Positions 6,704 to 20,277 of a DNA stretch of 64,000 nucleotides are shown one piece after another. Each line of letters starts with the position of its first letter. The first letter of the stretch is position 1. The stretch is from Planctomycetota bacterium (GTDB lineage Bacteria; Planctomycetota; SZUA-567). The DNA is taken from the NCBI GenBank assembly GCA_963675945.1, contig OY780932.1, positions 1,640,503 to 1,704,502 on the forward strand. The letters run 5' to 3'. Made by a program: the position numbers and the translations under genes. The notes beneath the pieces were generated by a model. The model had not been told where the DNA came from. It made no database searches and saw only the letters and a list, made by a program, of their open reading frames with translations.

Positions 6704-7657
6704 TCAACTGCTTTCGTTATCAGCTTCATCCCCGTCAAGGAAGGCCCAGGAAGAAGTAGCTTCTTTTTTGCTCTTGGTCTTTTCATAGTCCTGACGACAA
6801 TTGACGCAGCGAGTGGCGAAAGGAAGGATCTTGAGCCGGGAAGGGGAGATGGTAACATTACATATCTCACAGAGCCCGTAGGTGCCTTTTTCTATCTTCT
6901 CCAGTGCGGATTCAATCTGTTCAAGCTCTTCATCACTGTTGGCGGCAATTTCGAAGGTGACATCGTCGTCATAGGCATCGGCCGCTTGATCTACCGGGTC
7001 GGCAGAACTGGAGGAGGCGCGGTGACGGTAATCTGCCAGCTCTTTGCGCATATTCTCCAGAATACTCTCACGGAGTTCGATAAGCTTTTTGCGAGTAATT
7101 TTGAGTTCTTCTTCCGTCATGCGTCTGAACTCCTTGGGTTCGGCGCAGACGGTTGAAGCTTCGTTTTTTGGCTTTTTTGCGCCACTGAGCATTACTCCGG
7201 GAGCGAGTTTCAGGCCACCGGAAGGTTTTCTGGCGGTCACAATATGCCTCTGCTTTGCCCGACGGGATCCGGTCTTACCGGTTTTTTTGGGTGGGTGTAT
7301 GGTTTTTTTGCCATTTTCCACACTCTCGAGTTCCTTGATTTCCTTGCGGAGATGATCGCCTTCAAGATTGAGCGGGATAATCTCTTCGTCATCGGAATCT
7401 TGTAGATCGTCTTCAAGCTCCACTTCGGAATCAGTATCGAATTTGTCAAGATCGTTCTCGGTATCACGAGTATTTTCGACTACCTCGGTCTCTTGCTCCA
7501 GAGTGCTAGCTTTGGTGCTGCTCTTTTTGGCTACCTTTTTGCCGGACTTTTTGGCTGTTTTTTTTGAGGTTTTTTTGGCTACTTTCTTGGCTGTCTTCTT
7601 CCTCTCGGCTTTGGCTGTATCTTTTACAGTTTTCTTTGGAGCATCTTTTTTTGCCAT
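6704..7657 (-). CDS. DksA/TraR-family C4 zinc-finger protein with N-terminal lysine/alanine-rich histone H1-like tail
   Basis: The C-terminus CEICNVTISPSRLKILPFATRCVNCRQ is a DksA/TraR-type CxxC...CxxC finger. The N-terminal ~60 aa are KKxAKK repeats, followed by an acidic linker. Confidence 0.65.
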   Translation of the reverse strand: MAKKDAPKKTVKDTAKAERKKTAKKVAKKTSKKTAKKSGKKVAKKSSTKASTLEQETEVVENTRDTENDLDKFDTDSEVELEDDLQDSDDEEIIPLNLEGDHLRKEIKELESVENGKKTIHPPKKTGKTGSRRAKQRHIVTARKPSGGLKLAPGVMLSGAKKPKNEASTVCAEPKEFRRMTEEELKITRKKLIELRESILENMRKELADYRHRASSSSADPVDQAADAYDDDVTFEIAANSDEELEQIESALEKIEKGTYGLCEICNVTISPSRLKILPFATRCVNCRQDYEKTKSKKEATSSWAFLDGDEADNESS

Positions 7658-8099
7658 ATTGTTCTCCTTTTATCTGCAGTCAAATGCGGTTGCAGATAGT
7701 CTGGGTATTTGCTTGTCTCTAACCGGTATGGGTATAGAGGGGTACTGACATTTATTCTCTTCAAACACGACTATATAAATTGTATACTCTGTATCCTTGT
7801 GTAACCAAATGCCATAATTTTATTGAACCTAACTGCTTTGTTGGAATATGCGCAAACCTTTTTATCTGAAAACGTTCGAGAGTTAGAGCAAACTTATTTG
7901 TTGTTTTAATATGTAAAATCGCACAATAAGTATGGTGTTTGGGAGGTTAAATTCAAGAGTAAAATGCACAATTCTGTATTTTTTTCGCATGATTGATTAT
8001 ATCTTCTTCTGTAGTAAATAGTTGTGTGAGAAATTTTTGGGTTGTATTTGTGTGTTTTTGGGGGAGACGTGAGAGAGTGGAAAAAATAATATTAATATC

Positions 8100-8152: not shown

Positions 8153-8239
8153 GGGCGAGTGGCGGAATCGGCAGACGCAAGGGATTTAAAATCCCTTGAG
8201 ATTTATCTCGTACGGGTTCAAGTCCCGTCTTGCCCACCA
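8153..8239 (+). tRNA. tRNA-Leu (anticodon TAA)
   Basis: 87 nt including CCA. Acceptor stem GGGCGAG/CTTGCCC, anticodon stem AGGGA/TCCCT with loop TTTAAAA, long variable arm, T-loop TTCAAGT. Confidence 0.85.
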
Positions 8240-8244
8240 ATAAC

Positions 8245-8539
8245 AATCCCCCTCGACATTTATGTCGAGGGGGATTATTATTGGTGGTAGTAAGTAAGGG
8301 TCTCCCGTTTGTCCTGAGATGCTTTTGCAGGCGAGTAGTCGAGCGTGCAAAAGTGCCCACCAATTCCTTTTTCTGCGAGCATTTATGTCGAGGGGGATTA
8401 TTATTGGTGGTAGTAAGTAAGGGTCTCCCGTTTGTCCTGAGATACTTTTGCAGGCGAGTAGTCGAGCGTGCAAAAGTGCCCACCAATTTCTTATTCGTCG
8501 ACATTAATGCAGGCAGGGATTATTATTGGTGTCAGTGAG
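8245..8539. repeat. tandem direct repeats (about 123-bp period; two full copies and one partial) immediately 3' of tRNA-Leu; each full copy ends in TGCCCACCAAT, a copy of the tRNA 3' terminus
   Basis: Copy 1 spans 8247..8380, copy 2 8381..8503, and the partial copy 8504..8539. Copy 1 begins with a 32-bp perfect palindrome, aatccccctcgacatttatgtcgagggggatt. The tgcccaccaat motif occurs at 8231 (tRNA), 8354 and 8477. Confidence 0.8.
8526..8539. repeat. left copy of the 14-bp direct repeat TTGGTGTCAGTGAG bounding the RM/defence island (attL-like junction)
   Basis: The identical 14-mer recurs at 18715..18728. The repeat-unit homology is interrupted exactly here and resumes at the right copy. Confidence 0.6.
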
Positions 8540-8830
8540 AGAGTATAATGGTCTAAGAAATTTGGATAGTTGAATAAGGTAGATTTTCCCGATAATATTA
8601 TGAGAGAATTGATGTAAAATATAAGTTGGGGCTGAAGACTAGTACCACTTTTGTTGTATTATAGGGGTTAAGTTGAACTTAGAATGTATACAGTAGAAAA
8701 TAAGTACCATATTGTTATTGCTTTGTGCTCTTGAGGTTGTATTTTGCTTGCGCAGAAAGTGATTTAGGGTAGGATTGTAGGGTGGTAGTAATTTGGGTAA
8801 GAAGTTATTTGATAGAAGGATAATGGAACA

Positions 8831-10297
8831 ATGATAACTGGGGAGCTCAGGAATAAGGTAGATGCGATTTGGGATGTGTTTTGGGCTGGGGGGATTGCTA
8901 ATCCGATGACGGTTATTGAGCAGTTTACTTATCTACTTTTTATCAAGGGGCTTGATGATAGGCAGAATGAGCTGGATAGTAATGACTCGTTGATAGGGAC
9001 TGTGAGTGAGAAGATATTTCCAGATGATAAGCAGGAGCTTCGGTGGAGTACATTTAAGCATTTGCCGGCGGAGAAGATGTTTGAGTTGTTTGTTGATCCG
9101 AAGGATGGCGTGTTTGCGTTTATCAAGAATTTGCATGCGGATAAGGATTCGGCATTTTCTAAGTATATGGGGGATGCGATATTTGCGATACCGAAGGCGG
9201 GAATGCTGGAGAAGATTGTTACTTCGATTGATAAATTGGAGATCAAGGGGAAGGATGCGAAGGGGGACTTGTATGAGTATCTGCTGTCGAAGATAGCGAC
9301 GTCGGGGCAGAATGGGCAGTTTCGGACACCGAGGCATATTATCAAGATGATGGTGGAGCTGATGAAGCCGGTGCCGACGGATACGATAATTGATCCGGCT
9401 GCGGGGACGTCGGGGTTTCTGGTGGCTGCTGGGGAGTATTTGCAGGAGCATCATGATGAGATATTCAAGAAGCAGGAGTTAAGGGAGCATTATAATAATG
9501 AAATGTTCTTTGGGTTTGATACTGATACGACGATGCTGCGTATTGGGGCGATGAATATGATGCTACATGGGGTGGAGAATCCGAATATTGAGTATCGGGA
9601 TTCGTTGTCGGGTGATAATCATGAGCGGGAGAGGTGTTCGTTGATATTGGCGAATCCGCCGTTTAAAGGGTCGCTGAATTATGAGGATGTGTCGGCGGAT
9701 ATACTCAAAGTGACGAAGACGAAGAAGACTGAGTTATTGTTTGTGGCTCTTATGATCAAGATGCTCAAGAAGGGCGGGAGGTGTGCGTGTATTGTGCCGG
9801 ATGGGGTGCTCTTTGGGAGTAGCGGGGCGCATAAGATGCTGCGGAAGGAGATTGTGGAGAAGCATAATCTGCGGGCGATTATTTCTATGCCGAGTGGCGT
9901 GTTCAAGCCGTATGCGGGAGTTAGTACGGCGGTGATAATATTTGATAAGACTGGGATTGGGGGAACATCACAGATCTGGTTTTATGATATGGAGAGTGAC
10001 GGGTATAGTCTGGATGATAAGCGGACGGCGCTCAAGAGTTCTGATATACCGGATATTATCGAGCGGTTCGGGAGGCTGGAGAAGGAGAAGAAGCGGAAGC
10101 GGACGGAGCAGTCGTTCATGGTGCCGGTGAGTGAGGTGGTGAAGAATGAGTATGACTTGTCGATCAACCGGTATAAAGAGATAGTGTATGAAGAGGTGGA
10201 ATATGATGAGCCGGCGGTGATACTGGAAAGAGTGGCGGAGATGGAGAAGGATATTGGTAAGGGGATTAAGGATTTGCAGAAGATGCTGAGCAAGTAA
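8831..10297 (+). CDS. hsdM: Type I restriction-modification system N6-adenine DNA methyltransferase subunit HsdM
   Basis: HsdM N-terminal domain followed by the catalytic LANPPF motif and AdoMet motif DPAAGTSGFL; 488 aa. Confidence 0.9.
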   Translation: MITGELRNKVDAIWDVFWAGGIANPMTVIEQFTYLLFIKGLDDRQNELDSNDSLIGTVSEKIFPDDKQELRWSTFKHLPAEKMFELFVDPKDGVFAFIKNLHADKDSAFSKYMGDAIFAIPKAGMLEKIVTSIDKLEIKGKDAKGDLYEYLLSKIATSGQNGQFRTPRHIIKMMVELMKPVPTDTIIDPAAGTSGFLVAAGEYLQEHHDEIFKKQELREHYNNEMFFGFDTDTTMLRIGAMNMMLHGVENPNIEYRDSLSGDNHERERCSLILANPPFKGSLNYEDVSADILKVTKTKKTELLFVALMIKMLKKGGRCACIVPDGVLFGSSGAHKMLRKEIVEKHNLRAIISMPSGVFKPYAGVSTAVIIFDKTGIGGTSQIWFYDMESDGYSLDDKRTALKSSDIPDIIERFGRLEKEKKRKRTEQSFMVPVSEVVKNEYDLSINRYKEIVYEEVEYDEPAVILERVAEMEKDIGKGIKDLQKMLSK

Positions 10298-10313
10298 GGT
10301 AAGGGTATATTAT

Positions 10314-10739
10314 ATGAGTACTGAGATTGACTATGGAAAATTTAAGAAGGCATTGAAGTTGCTTGAGGAGCAGAATAACCGGCTTAATTCTGAGGTTGGG
10401 AGTATGGAAGAATGGGTAATTGATGCTGTTAAGGAGTCGACTATACAGAGATTTGAGACATGTTGGGACTGCCTGTGGAAGGTATTGAAGAGGTATTTGG
10501 AGATAGAGATAGGGCTTGCTGAAGTTCCGAATGGTCCGAATCCGATTTTGAGATTGGCGAATGAGAATAGTGTCTTGACTAGTTCTATTGAGGATTGGTT
10601 GATGTATGCGAGGGTAAGAGTTGGTACGTCACATGATTATAGCGGAGTGAAGGCTACTGATGCGTTGAAGTGTATGAGTAGTTTTATTGATGATGCGGTT
10701 AAGCTTTATGAGAAGATGAGTGGAGAGAGCTGGAGATAA
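10314..10739 (+). CDS. nucleotidyltransferase substrate-binding (HEPN, HI0074-like) toxin-antitoxin component
   Basis: 141 aa helical protein of the HI0074/NTase_sub_bind type. Its stop overlaps the start of the downstream minimal nucleotidyltransferase (ATAATG). Confidence 0.6.
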   Translation: MSTEIDYGKFKKALKLLEEQNNRLNSEVGSMEEWVIDAVKESTIQRFETCWDCLWKVLKRYLEIEIGLAEVPNGPNPILRLANENSVLTSSIEDWLMYARVRVGTSHDYSGVKATDALKCMSSFIDDAVKLYEKMSGESWR

Positions 10740-11056
10740 TGATTGATCATATACGTGATATAGATTTATCTGATGAGGAGTATCGTGAGGTGATGGCGTT
10801 GGTTGAGCGTTATATTCCTTGGGTTGAGGTATGGGTTTATGGTTCACGTGTTAAGCATACGGCAAAACCATATTCTGATTTGGATATGGTAGCTTTTGCT
10901 AGTGGTGAGAGTGTTTGTGCGGTTGCGGATTTGCGAGAGGCTTTTGAGGATAGTTATTTGCCATTCAGGGTTGATTTATTTATTTGGAAAGAGATACCGG
11001 AAGAGTTTAAGGAAGTTATTCGGGATGAGCATGTAGTTTTACAGGAAAAGAAATAG
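10739..11056 (+). CDS. minimal nucleotidyltransferase (MNT, HI0073/MntA-like) toxin-antitoxin component
   Basis: GSRVKHTAKPYSDLDM is the pol-beta-type NTase motif G[SG]x9-13Dx[DE]; 105 aa, translationally coupled to the upstream HEPN gene. Confidence 0.7.
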   Translation: MIDHIRDIDLSDEEYREVMALVERYIPWVEVWVYGSRVKHTAKPYSDLDMVAFASGESVCAVADLREAFEDSYLPFRVDLFIWKEIPEEFKEVIRDEHVVLQEKK

Positions 11057-11440
11057 GATTTGCAGAAGTAACGTTAATATAGCGTGTGATTTTAACCGAA
11101 GCGGTGAATACAGAATTGAGCGATCTGGCAAGCCAAGTAAATCGCTTTAGAAATTTACATAGTAGACTGAAGCGATACACAGGTCGCCAAGCAGGTGACA
11201 TTTTTCATCTGGGATGTATGTGAATTCCGAACTGGTGAGGAATGAGTCGTGTGCTTACTTTTGTCTGCTGGTCGGACGAAAAGTCAGTCGAAGTCTTCTG
11301 AGAATAGCGAATCCGACGCAGGAGGCGGGAGGATAGATGGAGCAACTTGTTGCGACACCCGAAGGGCAAGGACAGGGATGTCCGCAGTCAAGAAGGCTGA
11401 GAGTTTAGTCGTAGTTAAACTTGAAAATAGGGTTGAGTAA

Positions 11441-12598
11441 ATGAGTGAAAAGAAAAATAAAAAGCCGATTAATGAACATAAGTGGTATTTACTAATTATT
11501 ATTGTTGCTTTGGGGCTATTTTATATATATCCACTTTATACTCTGCTTGGAATTGGGTTTTTCTCACTAATAATTCATTTGCGATATGACCTTGATGACA
11601 TAGGAAAAATTGGTAGGAAGCATCCTGTATGGACAACAATTATATTATTTACATTTGGTATTGAGTTATATTTGTGGATTTATAAATATGGGTTATTATG
11701 GAAAGAACAGTATGCTCAACAGCCTTGGATAGAGTTGCTCGCAAATATTAAAAATGGTAAAGTTGTTGTAGGAAATAGTACCTTAGACTTTACTGAGTTG
11801 TTAAAAAAAGGCGTTGTTATGATGATTAGTACACCAGCATCAATTATTCCTATCATTCTTGCTCCGTATTTTTGGGTATTGTGGATTTGGAGGCATAATG
11901 ATAAAGAGTATGATAAAAAGAGAAATGAAGAGCTTGATGAGCAGGGTCGATTTAATCGGATAATTGATATGGTTGGGTCTACTGAGGTGAATTTACGATC
12001 AGGTGGAATGATGTTACTTGATGGCTTTCTAACTAGGTATGAAGATAATGATTTGGAATATAAATATTATTGTGGTGCTGCAATTTCTGTATTAGCAAAT
12101 AATTATTTCCCTGTTAATGATGGTATGTTTAATAGCAGAGTGATGTGTCATAAATCTTTTGCTGTTTGTTTAATATTACAAAATAAGCATTATAAAATAT
12201 GTGGAAAGCTAGCAGGTACTCCGTTATGTTTTGATTTTAATGTAAATGATTATATCGTCAGGTATTATGAGCTTTGTATTGATAATAGTCAGGAATTTGT
12301 TTTTGTTCGTTGTGTTGTAAGATTAGATATATTATTGTGTTTATTACGTAATAGTGAATATGCAAAAATATTTTCAAAAATGAAATTTAAAAAATCAATT
12401 TTTGAGATGACGGATTATTATTTAAAACATAGAATTCCCGATGATTTGATAGTTTTTTTTAGTGATAAAAATAAAGTTTATGAATGTTTATTGATGTGTC
12501 CTGAAGATAATTTTGCGAATAAGGAAGCATTTAAAATTATTAATAATTCAAATGATAATTTCTATATTGGTTTTAAATATGATAAAGAAGGAAATTAA
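11441..12598 (+). CDS. hypothetical multi-TM membrane protein, very AT-rich, translationally coupled to hsdS
   Basis: 385 aa with 3-4 N-terminal TM helices and a Cys-rich soluble C-terminal part; about 30% GC against about 45% in hsdM. Its stop overlaps the hsdS start (TAATG at 12596..12600). Confidence 0.55.
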   Translation: MSEKKNKKPINEHKWYLLIIIVALGLFYIYPLYTLLGIGFFSLIIHLRYDLDDIGKIGRKHPVWTTIILFTFGIELYLWIYKYGLLWKEQYAQQPWIELLANIKNGKVVVGNSTLDFTELLKKGVVMMISTPASIIPIILAPYFWVLWIWRHNDKEYDKKRNEELDEQGRFNRIIDMVGSTEVNLRSGGMMLLDGFLTRYEDNDLEYKYYCGAAISVLANNYFPVNDGMFNSRVMCHKSFAVCLILQNKHYKICGKLAGTPLCFDFNVNDYIVRYYELCIDNSQEFVFVRCVVRLDILLCLLRNSEYAKIFSKMKFKKSIFEMTDYYLKHRIPDDLIVFFSDKNKVYECLLMCPEDNFANKEAFKIINNSNDNFYIGFKYDKEGN

Positions 12599-13731
12599 TG
12601 AATAAATGGGAACTTGTTAAGCTTGGAGATGTAGTAACATTTCTTGATAATATGAGAGTGCCTGTAAAAGCTAGTGATAGAGTTGAAGGGGAATATCCAT
12701 ATTATGGGGCAAATGGACAGCAAGGAACAATTAATGATTATATTTTTGATGAATCATTAGTTTTGTTGGCTGAAGATGGTGGTAATTTTAATGATCCTAC
12801 TCGCCCTATTGCATACATTGCAAAGGGGAAGTATTGGGTTAATAACCATGCTCATGTTTTGCGCCCTTTAGAAATGATTACATTGAAATATTTATATTGG
12901 GTTTTAGCATTTTGTAATGTTATGCCTTATATTAAAGGGGCGACACGTCCAAAACTTACTAAAACTGACGCAAGTAGAATCAAAATCCCCCTCCCACCTC
13001 TGGCAACACAGAAACGCATAGTCAAGATACTGGACAAGGGGCAGGAGTTGATTGATAAGCGGAAGCGGCAGCTTGAGGAGATGGATGAACTGGTTAAGAG
13101 TTTGTTTTATGATATGTTTGGTGATCCTGTGACTAATCCTATGGGATGGGAAAAGGGAATAATTAGAGATTTAGCCGTGAAAACTCAGTATGGTACTAGT
13201 AAAAAGGCTCATGAAACAGATGGTGAGTTTCCTGTATTAAGAATGAATAACATAACATATAAGGGTACTTGGGACTTTAGCAGTCTTAAATATGTTGATT
13301 TTGATGAGAATGAAAAAGCAAAGTATTTAGTGTATAAAGGTGAGTTGCTTTTCAATAGAACTAATAGTAAGGAGCTAGTTGGTAAAACTGCTGTTTATAA
13401 AAATACTGAACCAATGGCATATGCTGGTTATCTTGTTAAGTTGATAGTGAATGAAAAAGCAAATTCTGAGTATATCTCTGCATATTTGAATTCAAATCAT
13501 GGTAAAGCAGTTTTGCTTAATATGGCAAAAAGTATTGTCGGTATGGCTAATATTAACGCTGAAGAATTAAAGAAGATTAAAATTTTGATCCCTCCTGTTT
13601 CGCTGCAAAATGAATTTGCAACCAGAGTACAAGCAATAGAAACAGAAAAAGAACGAATGCAGAAGTCACTCAAAGAGCTTGAGGATAATTTTGCAGCGTT
13701 GATGCAGAGGGTGTTTAAAGGGGAGTTGTAG
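12598..13731 (+). CDS. hsdS: Type I restriction-modification specificity subunit HsdS
   Basis: Two target-recognition domains, a central conserved LPPLATQKRIVKILD helix, a C-terminal coiled-coil repeat, 377 aa. Confidence 0.85.
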   Translation: MNKWELVKLGDVVTFLDNMRVPVKASDRVEGEYPYYGANGQQGTINDYIFDESLVLLAEDGGNFNDPTRPIAYIAKGKYWVNNHAHVLRPLEMITLKYLYWVLAFCNVMPYIKGATRPKLTKTDASRIKIPLPPLATQKRIVKILDKGQELIDKRKRQLEEMDELVKSLFYDMFGDPVTNPMGWEKGIIRDLAVKTQYGTSKKAHETDGEFPVLRMNNITYKGTWDFSSLKYVDFDENEKAKYLVYKGELLFNRTNSKELVGKTAVYKNTEPMAYAGYLVKLIVNEKANSEYISAYLNSNHGKAVLLNMAKSIVGMANINAEELKKIKILIPPVSLQNEFATRVQAIETEKERMQKSLKELEDNFAALMQRVFKGEL

Positions 13732-13871
13732 TTAGCTGAATACGCTGGCACGAAGCTTATATCTTGATGAATTTGGTAATTTGAATGCGGTGCTGGATTG
13801 TCATGAGGATTTTAATAGTAATATGAATTTTGTGGGTGAGTAGGTATATTTGAATAATAAGGACAATATTT

Positions 13872-14183
13872 ATGATTACCATTAAGATTAATAATGAATA
13901 CCGAAGGCTGAAAGATACGAGTAAAGAGTGGATTGTAAATATGTTTAGGAATATTCAAGCAGCGGGTGCTAACCCGTGGTATATTATCACTGTTGAAGAT
14001 CAGAATGTATATTCAGCATTTTGTTCGAATAATATTCCAACTTCACAAGAGTTGTGTCCGAAGTATACCCATACACTAGAAGAAAAAGAATTATCAGTTC
14101 TTTGGAAAACCCTTTGTGATGGGAGTAGTAACGTAAATGAAGTTTTGGCTTTTCTTGATAAAATTCCAAGTAAATATTTATAG
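13872..14183 (+). CDS. hypothetical small protein (103 aa) translationally coupled to downstream TIR-domain gene
   Basis: AT-rich ORF. Its stop at 14181..14183 is followed by GGAGGTG, the RBS of the TIR gene, 3 nt later. Confidence 0.45.
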   Translation: MITIKINNEYRRLKDTSKEWIVNMFRNIQAAGANPWYIITVEDQNVYSAFCSNNIPTSQELCPKYTHTLEEKELSVLWKTLCDGSSNVNEVLAFLDKIPSKYL

Positions 14184-14186
14184 GAG

Positions 14187-15146
14187 GTGATGATGGCAGG
14201 AGTATCGGTTTTCTTCTCATATTCGCATGCAGATGAAGAAATGAGAGATCAATTAGAGAAACACCTTACAATGTTAAAACGTAATGGTAATATATCAACA
14301 TTTCATGATAGAGAAATATTAGCTGGTGCTGAATTCGGTAATGAAATAGATCAAAATTTAATTGAAGCAGGAATAATTTTGTTATTAGTTAGTCCTGATT
14401 TTTTAGCGTCAGAATATTGTTATTCGATAGAGATGCAAACAGCTTTGAAAATGCATAAAGAAAATAAAGCAGTGGTTATCCCTGTAATTTTAGATCATTG
14501 CGATTGGCGAAGTGCTCCTTTTAGCTCTTTGATGGCTGTACCAAATGATGCAAAGCCAATTACTGAGTATGCAAATCAAAATAAGGCATTTGACGAAATT
14601 ACAACAGAGATAAGAAAAGTAGTTCAAAGTATTGCTGATACGGCTGATATCGCATGTTCAACAGCTAATTTTGAAGTTGAAAATTGTGAACCAAAAGTTG
14701 TTTGTAATGATAGATCAGCTAATTTGCATGTAAAGAAAGAATTTACTGAGCTTGATTTTAATGATTTTTTGAATAACTCATATGATTATATTGCAAAATA
14801 TATGCAGAACACACTTGAAGAATTTGAAAAAAGAAATGTTGGATTTCAAACAAGATTTAATTCTAATGATTCAAAAATTGAAATTTTAATATTTAATAAT
14901 GGAGTTAAAGTTGCTTATTGTAGAATTATGAAAGGAAGAGATGTTTCTTATATGATTGATTCGTTAGTATACTCTGAATCTGAGATGGGTAATTCTTTTA
15001 ATGATTCATTAAATATTGAAAATGATGGAACTTCTTTATTTTGGAAGCCAAGTTTTAATGTTGGGTATAGCCAAAAAGAAGAATTATTGTCGATGAAAGG
15101 GGCTGCTGAGTTTTTTTGGGATAAAGTTATTAGTAGGTTTCAGTAA
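14187..15146 (+). CDS. TIR-domain protein (N-terminal TIR_2-like domain plus about 170-aa C-terminal domain of unknown function)
   Basis: VFFSYSHADEEMRDQLEKHL ... IILLLVSPDFLASEYCYSIEMQTAL ... VIPVILD matches the bacterial TIR fold (SxSH, conserved Glu, hydrophobic beta-strand motifs). Strong RBS GGAGGTG. Confidence 0.7.
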   Translation: MMMAGVSVFFSYSHADEEMRDQLEKHLTMLKRNGNISTFHDREILAGAEFGNEIDQNLIEAGIILLLVSPDFLASEYCYSIEMQTALKMHKENKAVVIPVILDHCDWRSAPFSSLMAVPNDAKPITEYANQNKAFDEITTEIRKVVQSIADTADIACSTANFEVENCEPKVVCNDRSANLHVKKEFTELDFNDFLNNSYDYIAKYMQNTLEEFEKRNVGFQTRFNSNDSKIEILIFNNGVKVAYCRIMKGRDVSYMIDSLVYSESEMGNSFNDSLNIENDGTSLFWKPSFNVGYSQKEELLSMKGAAEFFWDKVISRFQ

Positions 15147-15297
15147 TTAGAATTAATGAAGTTTTCAACAAACTGCCCAGTGCGGGCTGCGCACCGAGGG
15201 ATGCAAGGGGCGAGGAGCCCCTGCGGAAGGGGTTTGGGGAAGGAACGTCCCCATTAGGAGTGACTTTGAACTATAAGGTTGGGTAAAAGGGATAGAG

Positions 15298-18200
15298 ATG
15301 AGTAACTTTGGGTTTTTGGATAAGCATAGTATGTTCAGGACGATTACGCCGCTGTGTAAAGAGGCGGAGAGTGCGCTCGGGGTGTCTAATGCTATCGCGG
15401 CGCTGTCGGCTAGGAGAGCGCTGGAGAGTGCGGTGAAATGGATGTACTCACATGACAGTACGCTTGAAGTGCCGTATCAGGATAACCTTTCCGCACTGAT
15501 TCATGATTATAAATTCAAAGACCTGATAGATGAAAGACTGTTTCCGAGAATCAAGTTCATTATAACACTGGGGAATAAAGCAGCGCATCAGTCTATGCCG
15601 ATGCGACGGGATGAGAGTGTGAAAGCGCTGGAGAATCTGTTTCATTTTATGAGGTGGATTACGTACGCTTATGGCGGTGAGAACTGTGCGGTGAAGTTTG
15701 AGGTTGGGAAACTGGCGGGTAGTGCTGAATATGAGCGGAAGACGAAGGCGATACAGGATGAGTTCAGAGAGAAGAAGGTTGAGTGGGAAGCGGAGAAGAA
15801 GAAGCTTGAAGAGCTGCTGCTGAGTAAGGAAGAGCGGGAAGAGGTAACGCAGAAGCGAGAAGAGAATGAGCAGAAGGCTGATTTTGCGTGTGAAGATATA
15901 TCTGAGTTCAAGACGAGAAAGGTTTATATCGATCTGGCGCTGGAGATGGCTGGCTGGGAGATTGGGGCTGACTGTAGGGAAGAGGTAGAAGTAAGCGGGA
16001 TGAAGAATGCTTCGGGAGTGGGGTTTGTTGATTATGTGCTGTATGCTGCTGACGGTAAGCCGCTCGCGGTAGTCGAGGCGAAGCGGGCGGCTAAAGATCC
16101 GAAGATTGGTAAGGTGCAGGCGAAGCTGTATGCGGATTGTCTGGAAGAGGAGTATGGTGTTCGACCGCTTATCTATTATACCAATGGATTTGAATACTGG
16201 TTGTGGGAGGATGCGTTCTATCCGGAGAGAAGGGTGTCGGGGATTGCGACGCGGGACAGCCTTGACTGGTACAGGCAGAGAGTAAAGACACGGAAGGATA
16301 TTTCTGCTGTTAAAGTGAATGATGAGATATCAAACAGACCTTATCAGAAAGCTGCGATTCAGGCGGTGTGTGAGAATCTGAGTAAGGCACAGAGGAAGTC
16401 TTTACTGGTGATGGCTACGGGGGCGGGCAAGACGCGTACGGCTATATCGATCGTTGATGTGCTGACTAAGAATAACTGGATTAAGAATGTCTTATTCCTT
16501 GCTGACAGGCGTGAGCTGGTTAAACAGGCTAAGCAGAACTTTTCTAAATTACTGCCGCATCATACAATCTGTAATCTGCTGGAGAAGAAGACGGAGGATA
16601 ATTCACTCAACAGTAGGATTATATTCTCTACTTATCCGACGATAATGAATGCGATTGATGTGACAAAGAAGGATGATGGTTCGACGCTCTTTACGGTAGG
16701 GCATTTTGACTTAATTATTATTGATGAATCACACCGTTCAATTTATAAAAAATATCAGGATATCTTTGCGTACTTTGACTCGTATCTACTGGGGCTTACT
16801 GCTACGCCGAAGAGCGATATCGGGAAGAATACTTATGGGTTCTATGATATTGAGAATGGAGTGCCGACGCATGCGTATACGCTGGATGAGGCGATACGTG
16901 ATGAGTGGCTGGTGCCGTATCGGGTGGTGAATACTACGCTGAAGTTTCTCACTTCTGGGGTTAAGTATGATGAGTTGTCGGATGAGGAGCAGGAGGAGTG
17001 GGAGGATAAGATTGGTGAGGAGATTGACAGTATCAGCAGTAACGAGGTGAACAGGATACTCTTCAATGATAATACTGTGGATACGGTTATTCAGGCGTTG
17101 ATGAATGATGGGATTAAGATTGAGGGCGGGGATAAGATCGGGAAGACGATTATCTTTGCTGCCAATACGAAGCATGCGGAGTATATTCTTGGGAGATTCA
17201 ATAAATTGTATCCGCATTACGCGGGGAAATTTGCTGCGACTATTTATAACGGGGTGAATTATGTTGATTCGCTGATCGATGATTTTAAGGAGGAGGATAA
17301 ATTTCCGCAGATTGCTGTGTCGGTGGATATGCTTGATACGGGGATTGATGTGCCGTCGATTGTCAATCTGGTCTTCTTTAAGAAGGTGCGCTCTAAAGCG
17401 AAGTTTCATCAGATGATTGGGCGTGGGACTAGGCTTTGTGAGGATCTCTTCGGTATTGGGGAGGATAAAGATGGATTTCGTATTTTTGATTATTGTTCGA
17501 ATTTTGAATTCTTCAAGGAAAATACGCAGGGGATTGAGACGAGACCGCAGAGGTCGCTCTCTGAGTGTCTGTTTATTATAAAGACTGAGATTGCGAAATT
17601 GCTTGAACATGCAACCTATCAGGAGAAGGAGTATATTAATCACCGTAAAGAGTTGGTGACTGGGTTGGCGAAAGAGGTGTATATGCTGGATGACTCTAGT
17701 CTTATCAATAGACTTCATTTAAAGTATATTCATGAATATCGTGATGTGAATGCATGGCAGAGTATATCTGACAAGATGCTGGCTGATATTAAAGAGCATA
17801 TTGCGCAGATTGTGATTCCGTCTACAGAGGATGAGTTGAAGAAACGGTTTGATTACTTGATGTATGCGATTGAGCATGCGTGTCTTGACCGGAAACAGCC
17901 TGCGCCGAAGAATAGGCGGAAGTTACAAACAACGGCTGAGAAGCTTGAGGAGAAGGGTAATTTGCCACAGGTGCAGCGTAACCTTGAGATTATAGAGTAT
18001 GTACAGTCTGAGGAGTATTGGGAGAATGCGTCTGTGTTTGATCATGAGCGGGTGCGTATTGCGCTGCGTGAGCTTGTGGTTCTCCTTGAGAGAGAAAACG
18101 CTGCAACGTACTTCACCAACTTTATGGATGAAGTGCTTGAGGTGCAGGAGATTGAGGGAGTGTACACTACGGATGAGTTTGTGAGCTACCGCAGGAAGGT

Positions 18201-18642
18201 TGAGGCTTATCTCAAAGAGCATCAGGATGACTTTGTTGTTTATAAGTTGCGTCACAATGAAACGCTCAACTTGAAGGATGTTGAGCATCTGGAGGATCTT
18301 CTGTGGAATGAGCTTGGGAGTGAGAATGATTACAAAACAGAGTATGGTGAGCAGCCCTTGCTTGAATTAGCTGCCAAACTTGTCGGCTTAGACCGTAATA
18401 CAGCGCAGGGTTTGTTCTCTGAATTTTTGTCTGATAATTCTCTCAATAGCAATCAGATTAATTTTGTCTCTCAGATTGTTGATTATATTGAGGATAATGG
18501 TGTGATTGATAAAAAGGTATTGCATGATCATCCGTTCAATCAGCAGGGGAGTATTGCTGAGCTGTTTGAGAATAAATTGCATGTTGTGACTAGTATAGCG
18601 AAAATTCTTGATGCTGTTAATGAGCGGGTTAGAGTGGGGTAA
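15298..18642 (+). CDS. hsdR: Type I restriction-modification endonuclease/helicase subunit HsdR
   Basis: 1114 aa. HsdR N-terminal region, PD-(D/E)xK nuclease motif FVDYVLY...VVEAKR, SF2 helicase Walker A MATGAGKTRTA and DExH box IIIDESHR. Confidence 0.9.
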   Translation: MSNFGFLDKHSMFRTITPLCKEAESALGVSNAIAALSARRALESAVKWMYSHDSTLEVPYQDNLSALIHDYKFKDLIDERLFPRIKFIITLGNKAAHQSMPMRRDESVKALENLFHFMRWITYAYGGENCAVKFEVGKLAGSAEYERKTKAIQDEFREKKVEWEAEKKKLEELLLSKEEREEVTQKREENEQKADFACEDISEFKTRKVYIDLALEMAGWEIGADCREEVEVSGMKNASGVGFVDYVLYAADGKPLAVVEAKRAAKDPKIGKVQAKLYADCLEEEYGVRPLIYYTNGFEYWLWEDAFYPERRVSGIATRDSLDWYRQRVKTRKDISAVKVNDEISNRPYQKAAIQAVCENLSKAQRKSLLVMATGAGKTRTAISIVDVLTKNNWIKNVLFLADRRELVKQAKQNFSKLLPHHTICNLLEKKTEDNSLNSRIIFSTYPTIMNAIDVTKKDDGSTLFTVGHFDLIIIDESHRSIYKKYQDIFAYFDSYLLGLTATPKSDIGKNTYGFYDIENGVPTHAYTLDEAIRDEWLVPYRVVNTTLKFLTSGVKYDELSDEEQEEWEDKIGEEIDSISSNEVNRILFNDNTVDTVIQALMNDGIKIEGGDKIGKTIIFAANTKHAEYILGRFNKLYPHYAGKFAATIYNGVNYVDSLIDDFKEEDKFPQIAVSVDMLDTGIDVPSIVNLVFFKKVRSKAKFHQMIGRGTRLCEDLFGIGEDKDGFRIFDYCSNFEFFKENTQGIETRPQRSLSECLFIIKTEIAKLLEHATYQEKEYINHRKELVTGLAKEVYMLDDSSLINRLHLKYIHEYRDVNAWQSISDKMLADIKEHIAQIVIPSTEDELKKRFDYLMYAIEHACLDRKQPAPKNRRKLQTTAEKLEEKGNLPQVQRNLEIIEYVQSEEYWENASVFDHERVRIALRELVVLLERENAATYFTNFMDEVLEVQEIEGVYTTDEFVSYRRKVEAYLKEHQDDFVVYKLRHNETLNLKDVEHLEDLLWNELGSENDYKTEYGEQPLLELAAKLVGLDRNTAQGLFSEFLSDNSLNSNQINFVSQIVDYIEDNGVIDKKVLHDHPFNQQGSIAELFENKLHVVTSIAKILDAVNERVRVG

Positions 18643-18714
18643 GCTACTCAATGAAGGTAGATTATGAGTAAGAAATATAAGAAGAAGATTACGTTGTTTA
18701 ATGTGTTGTCTGTG

Positions 18715-18728
18715 TTGGTGTCAGTGAG
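18715..18728. repeat. right copy of the 14-bp direct repeat TTGGTGTCAGTGAG (attR-like junction), followed by a repeat-unit remnant (18729..18768) homologous to the 8290..8330 and 8413..8453 units
   Basis: Sequence identity to 8526..8539, and continuation of the interrupted repeat unit (taagggtctctcgtttgtcctgagatgcttttgcaggc). Confidence 0.6.
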
Positions 18729-20277
18729 TAAGGGTCTCTCGTTTGTCCTGAGATGCTTTTGCAGGCTGGGACTTACGGGGAGTTTTTTGGAAGGGCTTAC
18801 TGCCGATAAAAATACGGCACAGAAGAGTAATTCCAGAAGCGGCAAGACAGATTACGGCAATGCCGCAGAGCATGTTTTTGATTCCCAGCCAGTGCATAAC
18901 CATCGGCAGAAAAAATACACCTGAAACAGCGCCGATCTTGGAACAGAAAGCGGCCAGCCCGTGGATTGTACCGCGCATTTCAGTCGGGAATATTTCCACC
19001 GGCAGCATGAAGGTGGTTGAGTTCGGTCCGGCGTTCATCAGTAAGTTGAAAATTATAAATCCGGAGAAGATAACCCACATTGCTGCCTGTGGCTTTCCGT
19101 CAGCTCCTAGAGCGTTGGAGAGGATAATTAGCCCTAGCGCCATTCCGATAAAACCAATAACTTGCAGACGGATTCGACCGACTCTTTCTACCAGAAGAAT
19201 ATTTAAGATAAATCCGCCCAGCAGGAAAAGATCGACAAAAGCAGAGCCTTCGGTTGAGAGCATTACATTGCTGAAGATGTTGTAGTGGCCTGAATGCGCG
19301 CCTTTGGATACGATATCGGTAATGATAAGCGGGGTGAATATGCCGATGCCGTAAGTTGCCACATCCATCAGGAACCAGGGAATGGTTACCAGAATTGTCC
19401 GCCAGATATATTTTGGGGTTAATAGTTCATGGTAGCACTGCCCATGTTTATTTATCAGGGTTTCCTGATATTCTTGCTCTTCTATAAGTATGCGTTCGAT
19501 GACTTTCATCTTGTAAGGCACATATTTGCGGATAATTTTGGCTGCGTCATGTACTCTTCCTTGCAGTAGGAGCCAACGCGGACTTTCTGGCACATATGAG
19601 CGTAGAAAGAGGACGATAACCGCGGGCAGAGCTAGAAAAGTCAGATATAGTCTCCAGGAAAAAATCTGATCCGGCAGCATCAGCATTATGCCGATGCCGC
19701 TCAGAGCTGCAAAGATCATCCCCACCGACTGGAAGGAGAAAGCCGCGATTAGCAGCCGCCCGCGCAGGTGAGAAGGCATTAATTCTGTGACGTAGGAAGC
19801 GGCGATGGGGTAATCCGAGCCTGCGGCGTAACCGACTATGAATTGGCAGACTGAGAGCATGTAGACATCACTGGAGAGTCCGCTGAGCAAAGCTCCTACA
19901 ACTGCTATAAGCATATTGAAGGTGAAGAAAAACCTGCGTCCGAAAATATCAGCAAGCCTGCCGGAAATTAGCGAACCGATAGCGGCGCCGAGGAGGGTCG
20001 AAACACCGGACAAGCCAAGCTGCCAGTATACCAATTCGAAATTATTCTTGATAAGCGGAAGGGCTACACCTATGGAAAAAATGCAGTATCCTTCAAGAAA
20101 TATCCCCATCGCCGCGAGAATCCAGACATAAAGATGAAGTTTGGAAAATTTTGCTTCGTCAAGCATTTCATTGAGGTTGGTTGCCACCTGATTTTTATTT
20201 GTCATTTTATGTCCTGTAAATTTTGTTGTTGCCTTGCCCGTGTAATGAGGCTTGGATTTTAATGTGATGTGTAACAT
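18721..20277 (-). CDS. MFS transporter (sugar/metabolite:H+ symporter-like)
   Basis: 518 aa with 12 predicted TM helices and a sugar-porter-like GRR/PESPRWL motif. The last 16 codons are encoded by the repeat/att region. Confidence 0.75.
   Translation of the reverse strand: MLHITLKSKPHYTGKATTKFTGHKMTNKNQVATNLNEMLDEAKFSKLHLYVWILAAMGIFLEGYCIFSIGVALPLIKNNFELVYWQLGLSGVSTLLGAAIGSLISGRLADIFGRRFFFTFNMLIAVVGALLSGLSSDVYMLSVCQFIVGYAAGSDYPIAASYVTELMPSHLRGRLLIAAFSFQSVGMIFAALSGIGIMLMLPDQIFSWRLYLTFLALPAVIVLFLRSYVPESPRWLLLQGRVHDAAKIIRKYVPYKMKVIERILIEEQEYQETLINKHGQCYHELLTPKYIWRTILVTIPWFLMDVATYGIGIFTPLIITDIVSKGAHSGHYNIFSNVMLSTEGSAFVDLFLLGGFILNILLVERVGRIRLQVIGFIGMALGLIILSNALGADGKPQAAMWVIFSGFIIFNLLMNAGPNSTTFMLPVEIFPTEMRGTIHGLAAFCSKIGAVSGVFFLPMVMHWLGIKNMLCGIAVICLAASGITLLCRIFIGSKPFQKTPRKSQPAKASQDKRETLTH

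Follow-up and report, generated by a model that had tools for sequence, protein, structure and literature searches.

What does a gene for a TIR-domain protein, preceded by a small gene, do between hsdS and hsdR of a Type I restriction-modification (R-M) operon? Such a pair lies in the window, the 64,000-nucleotide stretch of DNA analysed here, and a sequence-only reading had taken it for an undescribed anti-phage module. The structural and comparative data support, with moderate confidence, a single-protein sensor-NADase for abortive infection, here called TIR-Y4lF, accompanied by a dispensable accessory regulator, S. It is plausibly a new form of TIR immunity, a type of defence already known, and does not amount to a novel class of system. 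The argument refers to the following features, with TIR-Y4lF residues numbered by the 319-aa open reading frame.

11441..12598, + strand: gene for a 385-aa membrane protein, in the same hsd operon
12598..13731, + strand: hsdS, the upstream flank (Pfam Methylase_S 1.6e-41, two stretches)
13872..14183, + strand: small gene S, 103 aa, stop TAG at 14181-14183; a divergent member of an unannotated family of ~100-aa proteins
14183..14189, + strand: Shine-Dalgarno-like GGAGGTG, read from the sequence, overlapping the last base of the S stop
14193..15146, + strand: TIR-Y4lF gene, 317 aa from ATG 14193 (longest open reading frame from GTG 14187, 319 aa)
14208..14627, + strand: TIR domain, residues ~8-147 (Pfam TIR_2 and TIR)
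14430..14432, + strand: GAG, codon of the putative catalytic Glu, E82 (E80 in the 317-aa protein)
14628..14708, + strand: variable linker, residues ~148-174, of low identity among distant homologues
14709..15143, + strand: Y4lF domain (PF27176), residues 175-319, an alpha-beta(6)-alpha sandwich
14712..14726, + strand: RSANL, the invariant RSxNL motif, residues 176-180, leading into the first helix of the Y4lF domain
15298..18642, + strand: hsdR, the downstream flank (Pfam ResIII, HSDR_N and EcoEI_R_C)

Both reading frames of the cassette are found on the + strand at the coordinates first claimed for them, and both are more than chance reading frames. S has a dN/dS of 0.105 against an 80%-identical orthologue and belongs to a family of 776 representative homologue clusters. 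The TIR gene has a dN/dS of 0.16-0.24, and its product matches Pfam TIR_2 with 57.7 bits (cutoff 28, residues 8-115) and TIR with 37.9 bits (cutoff 21.3), both above the gathering threshold, as expected of the TIR domain originally reported. The coupled junction, in which the S stop runs into GGAGGTG and then a start codon, is likewise present in the sequence, although the protein is probably 317 and not 319 aa long. Start candidates lie at GTG 14187, ATG 14190 and ATG 14193, and translation would begin 7-10 nt on from the point where the stop overlaps GGAGGTG; the last candidate is favoured by the 317-aa length of the database copy P0001, which is 100% identical, and by alignment with two related genomes. 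The same alignment shows TAGGAG followed 7-10 nt later by ATG in L001 and L002.

The setting of the cassette is a complete Type I R-M operon. Pfam confirms the identities of HsdM (N6_Mtase and HsdM_N), HsdS and HsdR, and hence the placement between hsdS and hsdR; the operon itself is an insertion adjoining tRNA-Leu. The GC content is 0.30 in the TIR gene and 0.33 in S, compared with 0.48 in hsdM and 0.45 in hsdR, and GC3 follows the same order (0.18 and 0.27 against 0.61 and 0.52). The low GC of the cassette, from which separate acquisition had been proposed, is thus upheld and indicates foreign origin, but the low-GC tract is wider than the cassette: it runs from ~11400 to 15150 and takes in the 385-aa membrane protein gene (GC3 0.21) and hsdS (GC3 0.30). 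Alongside the cassette, the operon carries a HEPN/MNT pair and the membrane protein gene, and relatives' hsd operons contain DUF3800, IS elements and a pentapeptide protein. Because the cargo is so varied here and in relatives, the operon looks like a general insertion hotspot, a possible landing pad for three separate cargo cassettes, into which the TIR cassette would have entered as foreign cargo. A scan around the cassette gave no convincing separate promoter or + strand terminator, which is weak evidence for co-transcription with hsd.

Two membrane proteins were considered as further components and set aside. The 385-aa protein, as a candidate effector, has no Pfam, PADLOC, NCBIfam, PHROG or plasmid match, and nothing ties it to the TIR gene; outside the window's own genus its family does not appear, and within that genus it always sits between hsdM and hsdS. 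A membrane protein of 187-199 aa lies 5' of S in L001-L003 only; it has left no remnant at 13601-13900 of the window and is missing from the other loci that carry S and TIR-Y4lF.

The putative catalytic residue E82 is present and invariant among 20 diverse homologues, and it aligns with the Glu of the WC..E-type motifs of L6 (SKWCL-MEL), Cat1 (DWCWD-EL) and the TIR of 7uxr (W-TEYEL), a position that we take to be catalytic from established knowledge of TIR NADases. By profile, the closest solved relative of the domain is Cat1, a CRISPR-associated TIR NADase (E 2.2e-9), and the second PADLOC match of the protein is SAVED_TIR (3.8e-14). No solved ThsB is as near to the TIR domain as are Cat1 and TIR-SAVED, both NAD-depleting effectors. 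Reading the sequence by eye, no secretion signal or membrane segment was seen.

The remainder of the protein had been described as about 170 aa with no recognisable motif. This description does not hold: the C-terminal ~145 aa are the Pfam domain PF27176, named Y4lF. The assignment is a precomputed match on P0001, made with a model newer than the Pfam copy used here, and the same match is present on all 120 homologues among the matches listed. More than 1,142 homologues of ~317 aa share the TIR and PF27176 architecture. At 90% identity the family comprises more than 1,100 clusters, distributed over chromosomes, megaplasmids and symbiosis plasmids; y4lF of pNGR234a is a full-length homologue, 39.7% identical. 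The PADLOC model PDLC00420 (ThsB1) also matches over the full length (E 2.4e-94), with residues 7-318 aligned to positions 3-315 of the 319 in the model. The TIR protein, though uncharacterised, is thus already catalogued. Literature searches found no paper using Y4lF in this sense, no account of an hsd operon that contains a TIR gene and no experiment on any member of the TIR-Y4lF or S family.

Structure prediction (AF2) gives a confident model of the Y4lF domain, a frataxin-like alpha/beta sandwich of alpha-beta(6)-alpha order. Within the RSANL segment, which is coil in the model, R176, S177, N179 and L180 are invariant. The domain is presumed to serve in sensing or assembly. Mean identity to distant homologues falls from 57% in the TIR domain to 35% in the Y4lF domain and 11% in the linker, and the rate of evolution of the gene exceeds that of its flanking genes (dN 0.28-0.30, versus 0.14 for hsdR and 0.055 for hsdM). 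A conserved TIR, a divergent Y4lF domain and fast evolution are together what one would expect if a conserved effector were joined to a sensor engaged in an arms race. Profiles of the Y4lF domain and of S found nothing significant among PDB sequences. A kinship between Y4lF and the C-terminal halves of the DUF4062 proteins that accompany S elsewhere was rejected, as profile comparison and HMM search revealed no similarity.

No ThsA, cyclase or STING partner occurs at the window locus, as first read, or in ~80 related loci; in PADLOC, none of S, the 385-aa protein and the HEPN/MNT pair matches ThsA. The most widespread neighbour family is present in at most 12 of 84 loci, and SIR2, SLOG, Macro and cyclase are absent from the families listed for the 143 nearest large neighbours. 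With no recurrent large partner, the function of TIR-Y4lF must be self-contained, and the absence of ThsA across these loci makes it a standalone TIR protein and not a Thoeris system. S stands beside ~10% of TIR-Y4lF genes, adjoining 8 of the ~77 loci in the non-redundant TIR-seeded set and occurring in the window genus as well, and ~15% have an unrelated 164-aa downstream gene, D. One plasmid carries DUF2188 there, and most members are solo. The neighbours do include many defence or mobile-element genes, in keeping with the defence setting first suggested: Type I and ISP R-M, AbiEii, a PLD anti-phage protein, OLD/AAA_15, HipA, BrxL, TIR-WD40, integrases and T4SS genes, with the family borne by 49 plasmid records. 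This context is mixed, however, in that many neighbours are ordinary genes.

The small partner is a soluble protein of ~100 aa with no enzymatic or membrane motif. Profile and structure searches place it in an unannotated family with no Pfam, PDB or fold match; its own fold model is confident and has no precedent. PHROGs gave no match for S, TIR, D or the 385-aa protein. Two Trp, several Arg and a loop rich in Gly are conserved across the S family, and the S of the window lacks most of the family-conserved residues, among them both Cys, R27/R28, the GGGGR loop and K96/Q97. Three assignments of S were rejected: Imm33-like (PF24719; 14 bits against a cutoff of 27, in 1 of 64 family members) was taken as chance, and hhalign gave probabilities of 0.04% for kinship with DUF2188 and 0.5% for kinship with the D family.

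The pairing of S with TIR-Y4lF crosses phyla. The two genes are directly adjacent in Planctomycetota, Thermodesulfobacteriota, Gammaproteobacteria and Bacillota MAGs, on the same strand and usually 9-65 nt apart, and S seeding adds four further lineages. The proposed small partner thus stands as a conserved cross-phylum companion, but not as an obligate one. S also lies beside DUF4062 NADases of 346 and 348 aa, a PLD-like gene, a WYL-like gene and unknowns of 132 and 161 aa. The gene order is reversed in L059 and in L084, the latter being S with DUF4062. In L001, S is broken by a 1-nt insertion while the TIR gene is intact; this could be a long-read assembly error. The low frequency of S beside TIR-Y4lF, the L001 interruption and the variety of its other partners make S look accessory. 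Two phage homologues were found, IMG/VR locus L097 and QJD55417.1 of Vibrio phage vB_Vipa4291; one copy is a moron right behind the portal gene of a lambda-like head module and the other lies in the accessory region of a Vibrio inovirus. The metagenome scan for S yielded one locus, a low number due to confirmation against the divergent window sequence, and the viral scan, with a typical member as first sequence, also yielded one.

From these data we infer a self-contained sensor-effector, composed of an N-terminal NAD+-cleaving TIR domain with E82, a variable linker and the frataxin-like Y4lF domain. In uninfected cells TIR-Y4lF would be inactive. Upon infection, the faster-evolving Y4lF domain would recognise a cue supplied by the phage, most probably one of its multimeric proteins; binding of the cue would gather the TIR domains, and the resulting NAD+ hydrolysis would stop the growth of the infected cell. 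S would share the transcript of TIR-Y4lF, its amount coupled to that of the enzyme, and would be an accessory and not a second core component. Its most likely role would be that of a modulator restraining or tuning the NADase, a role put forward by analogy with the dispensable accessory genes of Vesta and Metis and not on direct support.

The nearest competing possibility is a Thoeris-like pair, in which TIR-Y4lF senses infection and makes an ADP-ribose-derived signal and S, or the 164-aa or DUF2188 protein, is the receptor, effector or host-encoded buffer of that signal. The TIRs of Thoeris produce signals instead of using up NAD+, two activities that cannot be told apart from sequence; the PADLOC label, with its full-length match, is ThsB. 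The different small neighbours of different clades (S, D, DUF2188) recall the effector swapping of Thoeris. S moreover accompanies TIR-like NADases of the DUF4062 type, in which the C-terminal half has no kinship with Y4lF, so the shared feature of these partners is an NAD-processing domain, and the Trp, Arg and Gly-rich loop of the S family could form a nucleotide pocket. Nevertheless, a signal generator with no effector would be useless, and most TIR-Y4lF genes have no recurrent neighbour. S is small and soluble, shows neither an enzymatic nor a membrane motif, has a fold without known relatives, and also accompanies non-TIR genes (the PLD-like, WYL-like, 132-aa and 161-aa neighbours); in the window copy the Gly-rich loop is missing, as are most of the Arg and Cys that the family conserves, and the TIR domain itself sides with Cat1 and TIR-SAVED. 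The Thoeris-like pair is accordingly judged rather unlikely. Less probable still is a guard in the manner of PrrC, whose gene lies between hsdS and hsdR in EcoprrI. Here HsdMSR would hold the TIR protein and S inactive until a phage anti-restriction protein disables the complex. The matching position, its retention in three related genomes, the single strand throughout and the lack of a + strand terminator-like site at either cassette end would suit this arrangement, as would Type I R-M links in L039, L056/L057 (1-nt gap to hsdM), L075 (2-nt gap past hsdS) and L086/L087, and the S plus DUF4062 pair of L084. Such adjacency, however, amounts to ~5 of ~80 independent lineages (the window, L039, L056/L057, L075 and L086), which by a rough estimate is no more than expected for defence-island genes. 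The insertion-hotspot character of the hsd operon, and plasmid copies that are solo or beside unrelated genes, further argue against a guard.

A toxin-antitoxin function, with a constitutively toxic TIR NADase and S as the antitoxin stabilising an island or plasmid rather than sensing phage, is a similarly slim prospect. It would account for a small gene upstream of an enzyme with coupled translation, for the abundance of the family on plasmids and mobile elements, and for the S homologues of two phages, as phages sometimes carry antitoxin mimics. It predicts obligate co-occurrence, however, and ~90% of TIR-Y4lF genes have no S. Nor does it fit the reversed order in two loci, the intact TIR gene beside a possibly disrupted S in L001, the lack of a DNA-binding fold in S, whose family pI is near neutral, or the greater conservation of S than of the TIR protein between close relatives (80% versus 60% identity). 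Finally, TIR-Y4lF might have no immune function, serving instead as a housekeeping or host-interaction protein in NAD metabolism or scaffolding beside which S lies incidentally. The y4lF gene does sit among non-defence genes on the rhizobial symbiosis plasmid pNGR234a, and ordinary metabolic or regulatory genes are common neighbours. Incidental adjacency is difficult to reconcile with S beside TIR-Y4lF in eight TIR-seeded lineages, the window genus and four S-seeded lineages from four phyla. The patchy, horizontally mobile distribution, foreign composition, fast protein evolution and recurring defence neighbours, together with the apparent absence of a secretion signal or membrane segment, also oppose a non-immune function, which is considered improbable.

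Of the two genes, S is the more original element. A tentative extension, in our estimation doubtful, is that S is a portable trans-acting control module for abortive-infection enzymes, acting as a safety catch or trigger adaptor, and captured by phages as an anti-defence factor. S may have been combined repeatedly with unrelated suicidal effectors, namely TIR-Y4lF, DUF4062/NIR NADases and a PLD-like nuclease, and could thereby show how suicidal enzymes stay safe or how phages disarm them.

Comparison with known systems places the layout of TIR-Y4lF within an existing kind, contrary to the original view that it fitted none. Swarozyc (KpSwz), Evangelion (Eva01) and Vulcan are validated DUF4062 precedents for an N-terminal NADase with a C-terminal sensor: each has an NAD+-cleaving N-terminal domain with a catalytic Glu and a diversified sensing C-terminal region, and phage proteins trigger NAD+ depletion and abortive infection, Swarozyc being a portal-activated NADase. 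TIR-Y4lF is likewise one polypeptide with a catalytic-Glu domain followed by an auxiliary region, and the S family pairs with proteins of the same DUF4062 type. Unlike these systems, TIR-Y4lF has a canonical TIR_2 and not DUF4062/NIR (PF13271), and its family HMM has no match to the S-associated DUF4062 protein; its auxiliary domain is a frataxin-like sandwich and not winged-helix or HEAT; and the accounts consulted of the three systems describe no small partner gene. If the assignment is confirmed, a large cross-phylum family would join the one-protein "sensor plus NADase" immune systems, a class that so far rests on the TIR-like DUF4062 domain.

With Thoeris ThsB (types I-XI), TIR-Y4lF shares a TIR with catalytic Glu, the ThsB1 match, mobile or defence-rich settings and clade-varying small neighbours; it differs in having no ThsA (SIR2-SLOG), Macro-TM or recurrent effector beside it, most members being solo. 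Effector swapping is seen across 29 putative Thoeris types, with DUF2188 listed as a putative effector, and the 2025 systematic Thoeris survey explicitly left out standalone TIRs. Because such surveys deliberately set standalone TIRs aside, TIR-Y4lF falls between annotation schemes: PADLOC recognises it as ThsB, yet would call no system without ThsA. TIR-SAVED and TIR-STING of CBASS and Cat1 of type III CRISPR also join a TIR to a C-terminal regulatory domain, and Cat1 and TIR-SAVED are the closest in sequence. The Y4lF domain belongs to none of the ligand-binding types SAVED, STING and CARF that mark the TIR effectors of CBASS, Pycsar and type III CRISPR; neither cyclase nor CRISPR genes lie near TIR-Y4lF, and a second-messenger source is not evident. 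Like PrrC in the EcoprrI Type Ic R-M system, TIR-Y4lF is a putative suicidal effector encoded on the same strand between hsdS and hsdR, but it belongs to an unrelated family in which Type I R-M linkage is occasional and not a family trait. The proposed arrangement of an effector with its own sensing domain and an operon partner has counterparts in Vesta (VstA/VstB) and Metis (MisA/MisB). Neither system needs its accessory gene for defence, and MisB protects uninfected cells from toxicity. The Vesta effector is NAD-depleting and that of Metis otherwise toxic, and each has its own sensing domain. Their partners are recognisable phosphatases, unlike S, which has no recognisable fold or catalytic motif.

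The cassette sits in a Type I restriction-modification (R-M) operon, and both of its open reading frames lie on the plus strand where the sequence-only reading had placed them.

8831..10297, plus strand: hsdM (Pfam)
12598..13731, plus strand: hsdS (Pfam)
13872..14183, plus strand: gene for the 103-aa small protein S, stop codon TAG
14183-14189, plus strand: GGAGGTG, its first G being the last base of the S stop codon TAG
15298..18642, plus strand: hsdR (Pfam)

The TIR gene has three candidate starts: GTG 14187, ATG 14190, and ATG 14193. Because the identical database copy (P0001) has 317 aa and alignment with two related genomes identifies ATG 14193 as the conserved start, the reading frame stands and its product is more probably 317 aa than the 319 aa originally assigned. 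Residue numbers given here follow the 319-aa form. Alignment further shows that the TAGGAG-then-ATG junction is kept in two related genomes despite protein divergence. Both genes are under purifying selection, the dN/dS values being 0.105 (S gene) and 0.16-0.24 (TIR gene). In the related 3.8-Mb genome L001, the S orthologue (7629-7989) is split by a 1-nt insertion after codon ~38 beside an intact TIR gene; either the S copy is a recent pseudogene or the long-read assembly is wrong here.

Residues 8-115 of the TIR protein match Pfam TIR_2 (57.7 bits), and the PADLOC ThsB1 model covers residues 7-318 (E 2.4e-94), the second PADLOC match being a CBASS TIR-SAVED effector. More than 1,142 homologues came up in a database search; the 120 matches listed span 310-374 aa (mostly about 317 aa), and all 120 combine TIR with Pfam PF27176, which takes its name, Y4lF, from an ORF on the Sinorhizobium NGR234 symbiosis plasmid. 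The description of the C-terminal part as lacking a recognisable motif is therefore outdated. Conservation of the TIR catalytic glutamate is confirmed: E82 is invariant and aligns with the catalytic Glu of solved TIRs, L6 and Cat1 among them, the closest solved relative being Cat1, a CRISPR-associated TIR NADase (E 2.2e-9). AlphaFold models residues 170-319 with confidence (pLDDT 86.4): a long helix is followed by six strands in antiparallel arrangement and by a helix at the C-terminal end. Identity to distant members is 57% in the TIR domain versus 35% in the Y4lF domain. The linker between them is hypervariable; its exception, an RSxNL invariant across the family and directly before the Y4lF domain, may serve for docking, cleavage or autoinhibition. 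In the window this is RSANL (14712-14726), modelled as a coil packing before Y4lF helix 1.

When all neighbours at 80 genome loci, retrieved with the TIR protein as seed, were clustered, the most widespread family reached at most about 12 loci. Among the 143 nearest large neighbours, Type I methylases and integrases were the commonest families, with 3-4 members each, ahead of TraG/T4SS, HipA and Mrr with 2 each; the PADLOC and Pfam families listed for them include no ThsA-like protein (SIR2, SLOG, Macro) or cyclase, as first noted for the window locus. TIR-Y4lF is thus in essence a standalone family.

Two small-gene families recur beside it. S directly adjoins TIR-Y4lF in the window and, likewise on one strand with it, in loci L001-L004, L011, L013, L025, L030, L076 and L078, and lies downstream in L059; TIR-Y4lF genes usually lack it. 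D, a family of ~164 aa unrelated to S, lies directly 3' in about 12 other loci (for example L028, L037 and L046), including that of y4lF itself.

L095 (pNGR234a) 4977-5462: D gene beside y4lF

D genes start 4-10 nt downstream of, or overlap, TIR-Y4lF genes and belong to one large clade; the family has invariant W62, E73, D75, E76 and W134 and no Pfam or PHROG match. S and D occupy separate parts of the neighbour-joining tree, both patchily, and in one plasmid a DUF2188 gene lies upstream in their place. Comparing the adjacent small ORFs all against all at higher sensitivity revealed no other large family.

As a single query, the window S matched its 80%-identical orthologue alone. A profile built from nine locus-derived members retrieved 169 clusters at 90% identity and 776 representative clusters, of which 595 fall below 1e-10. 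Most listed members are about 100 aa long, and a minority reach 115-173 aa through N-terminal extensions; none is annotated, and the family has no annotation in Pfam, PADLOC, NCBIfam or PHROGs. The window S is a divergent branch (about 20% identity to the family bulk) that retains W20, W78, E71 and the AFL motif and lacks two Cys, several Arg and a Gly-rich loop conserved elsewhere.

Eleven S-seeded contexts were looked up. TIR-Y4lF lies directly 3' of S in four, and a DUF4062 protein (346 or 348 aa) beside it in two; three have small neighbours that are unknown or WYL-like; one S gene neighbours a PLD-like gene in a Vibrio inovirus accessory region, and one occupies the portal/prohead protease interval of a lambda-like phage head module. 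Given these mixed neighbours, S shows a non-exclusive link to TIR-type enzymes.

L084 4948-6306 and L096 2265-3627: directly adjacent S and DUF4062 genes, DUF4062 being a TIR-like NADase
L097 5001-5306: S homologue between portal and S49 prohead-protease genes (IMG/VR UViG 2619618995)
L106 5001-6155: S homologue QJD55417.1, f237-like inovirus accessory region of Vibrio phage vB_Vipa4291 (MT188665.1)

The C-terminal halves of the two DUF4062 proteins are unrelated to Y4lF, and the L084 pair lies directly 5' of another Type I R-M operon, with DUF3800 also in the operon. The L097 module reads terminase, gpW-like, portal, S, protease, decoration, major capsid; this position of S is notable because the portal protein triggers the DUF4062 system Swarozyc. 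In L106, S is followed by a 236-aa PLD-like protein annotated 'DNA repair protein'. Found beside several suicidal enzymes and in phages, the S family is the most original lead.

The foreign composition ascribed to the cassette is borne out by strikingly low GC3 (TIR gene 0.18, S gene 0.27) versus hsdM (0.61) and hsdR (0.52); the low-GC tract extends over hsdS and the 385-aa gene 5' of it. The operon and its cargo (about 8540..18714) form an insertion beside tRNA-Leu(taa) (8153-8239), with no integrase inside. In the flanks (8153-8539 and 18715-18766), the third unit of a 122-nt tandem repeat (first units 8257-8378 and 8380-8501) is interrupted at 8539 and continues from 18715. Within the window, the 14-nt TTGGTGTCAGTGAG occurs at the two junctions only. 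At 10314-11056, between hsdM and a membrane gene, lies a second cargo cassette, of HEPN/MNT toxin-antitoxin type: a HEPN-like protein (NTase_sub_bind, 141 aa) and a minimal nucleotidyltransferase (105 aa; also matching PADLOC 'Specificity_I', 2e-21), stop and start overlapping. The membrane gene (11441-12598), whose stop overlaps the hsdS start, encodes 385 aa: some four membrane helices at the N-terminal end and a soluble C-terminal half that is very AT-rich (GC3 0.21). Pfam, PADLOC, NCBIfam, PHROGs and plasmids gave no match to it; its homologues were seen in the same genus only (L001, two copies; L002; L003), always between hsdM and hsdS. The TIR-hsdR spacer holds a GC-rich stretch (15170-15260) adjoining the AT-rich TIR gene, with a 45-nt core (15208-15252) found once in the window and a minus-strand terminator-like hairpin (15176-15198).

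Taken in aggregate, the standalone family, the architecture and the optional S argue that sensing and effector functions may both reside within TIR-Y4lF. By analogy with DUF4062 systems, we propose that a phage cue would be recognised by the Y4lF domain, that the TIR domains would then be brought together, and that E82 would cleave NAD+, aborting infection, with S as a putative accessory modulator. The same self-contained logic was shown for the TIR-like DUF4062/NIR domain in three 2026 preprints: Swarozyc is switched on by assembly of its C-terminal auxiliary domains around a phage portal, defence by the single proteins Evangelion and Vulcan depends on their auxiliary regions, and the operon partner of Vesta is dispensable for defence, as is MisB of the related Metis, which prevents toxicity in uninfected cells.

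A Thoeris-like TIR that makes a signal and leaves NAD+ undepleted is unlikely, though retained because the sequence is compatible with it, the two activities not being separable at that level. Guarding of Type I R-M in the manner of PrrC is attractive for the window locus, but R-M genes adjoin only about 5 of 80 TIR-Y4lF lineages and the window hsd operon is a general cargo hotspot. A toxin-antitoxin pair of TIR-Y4lF and S is disfavoured because the pairing is non-obligate and variable in gene order.

The cassette first noted is confirmed as an observation, and its interpretation as an undescribed anti-phage module is supported in part: Pfam and PADLOC already catalogue the TIR family, S is a novel, optional partner, and the whole is a reasonable candidate defence cassette. 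The locus would be best described as a single-protein TIR NADase with an auxiliary sensor, pairing a canonical TIR with Y4lF. Thoeris is defined by an adjacent effector, which the window locus lacks; with Swarozyc, Evangelion and Vulcan, TIR-Y4lF has its architecture in common, whereas domain identity differs.
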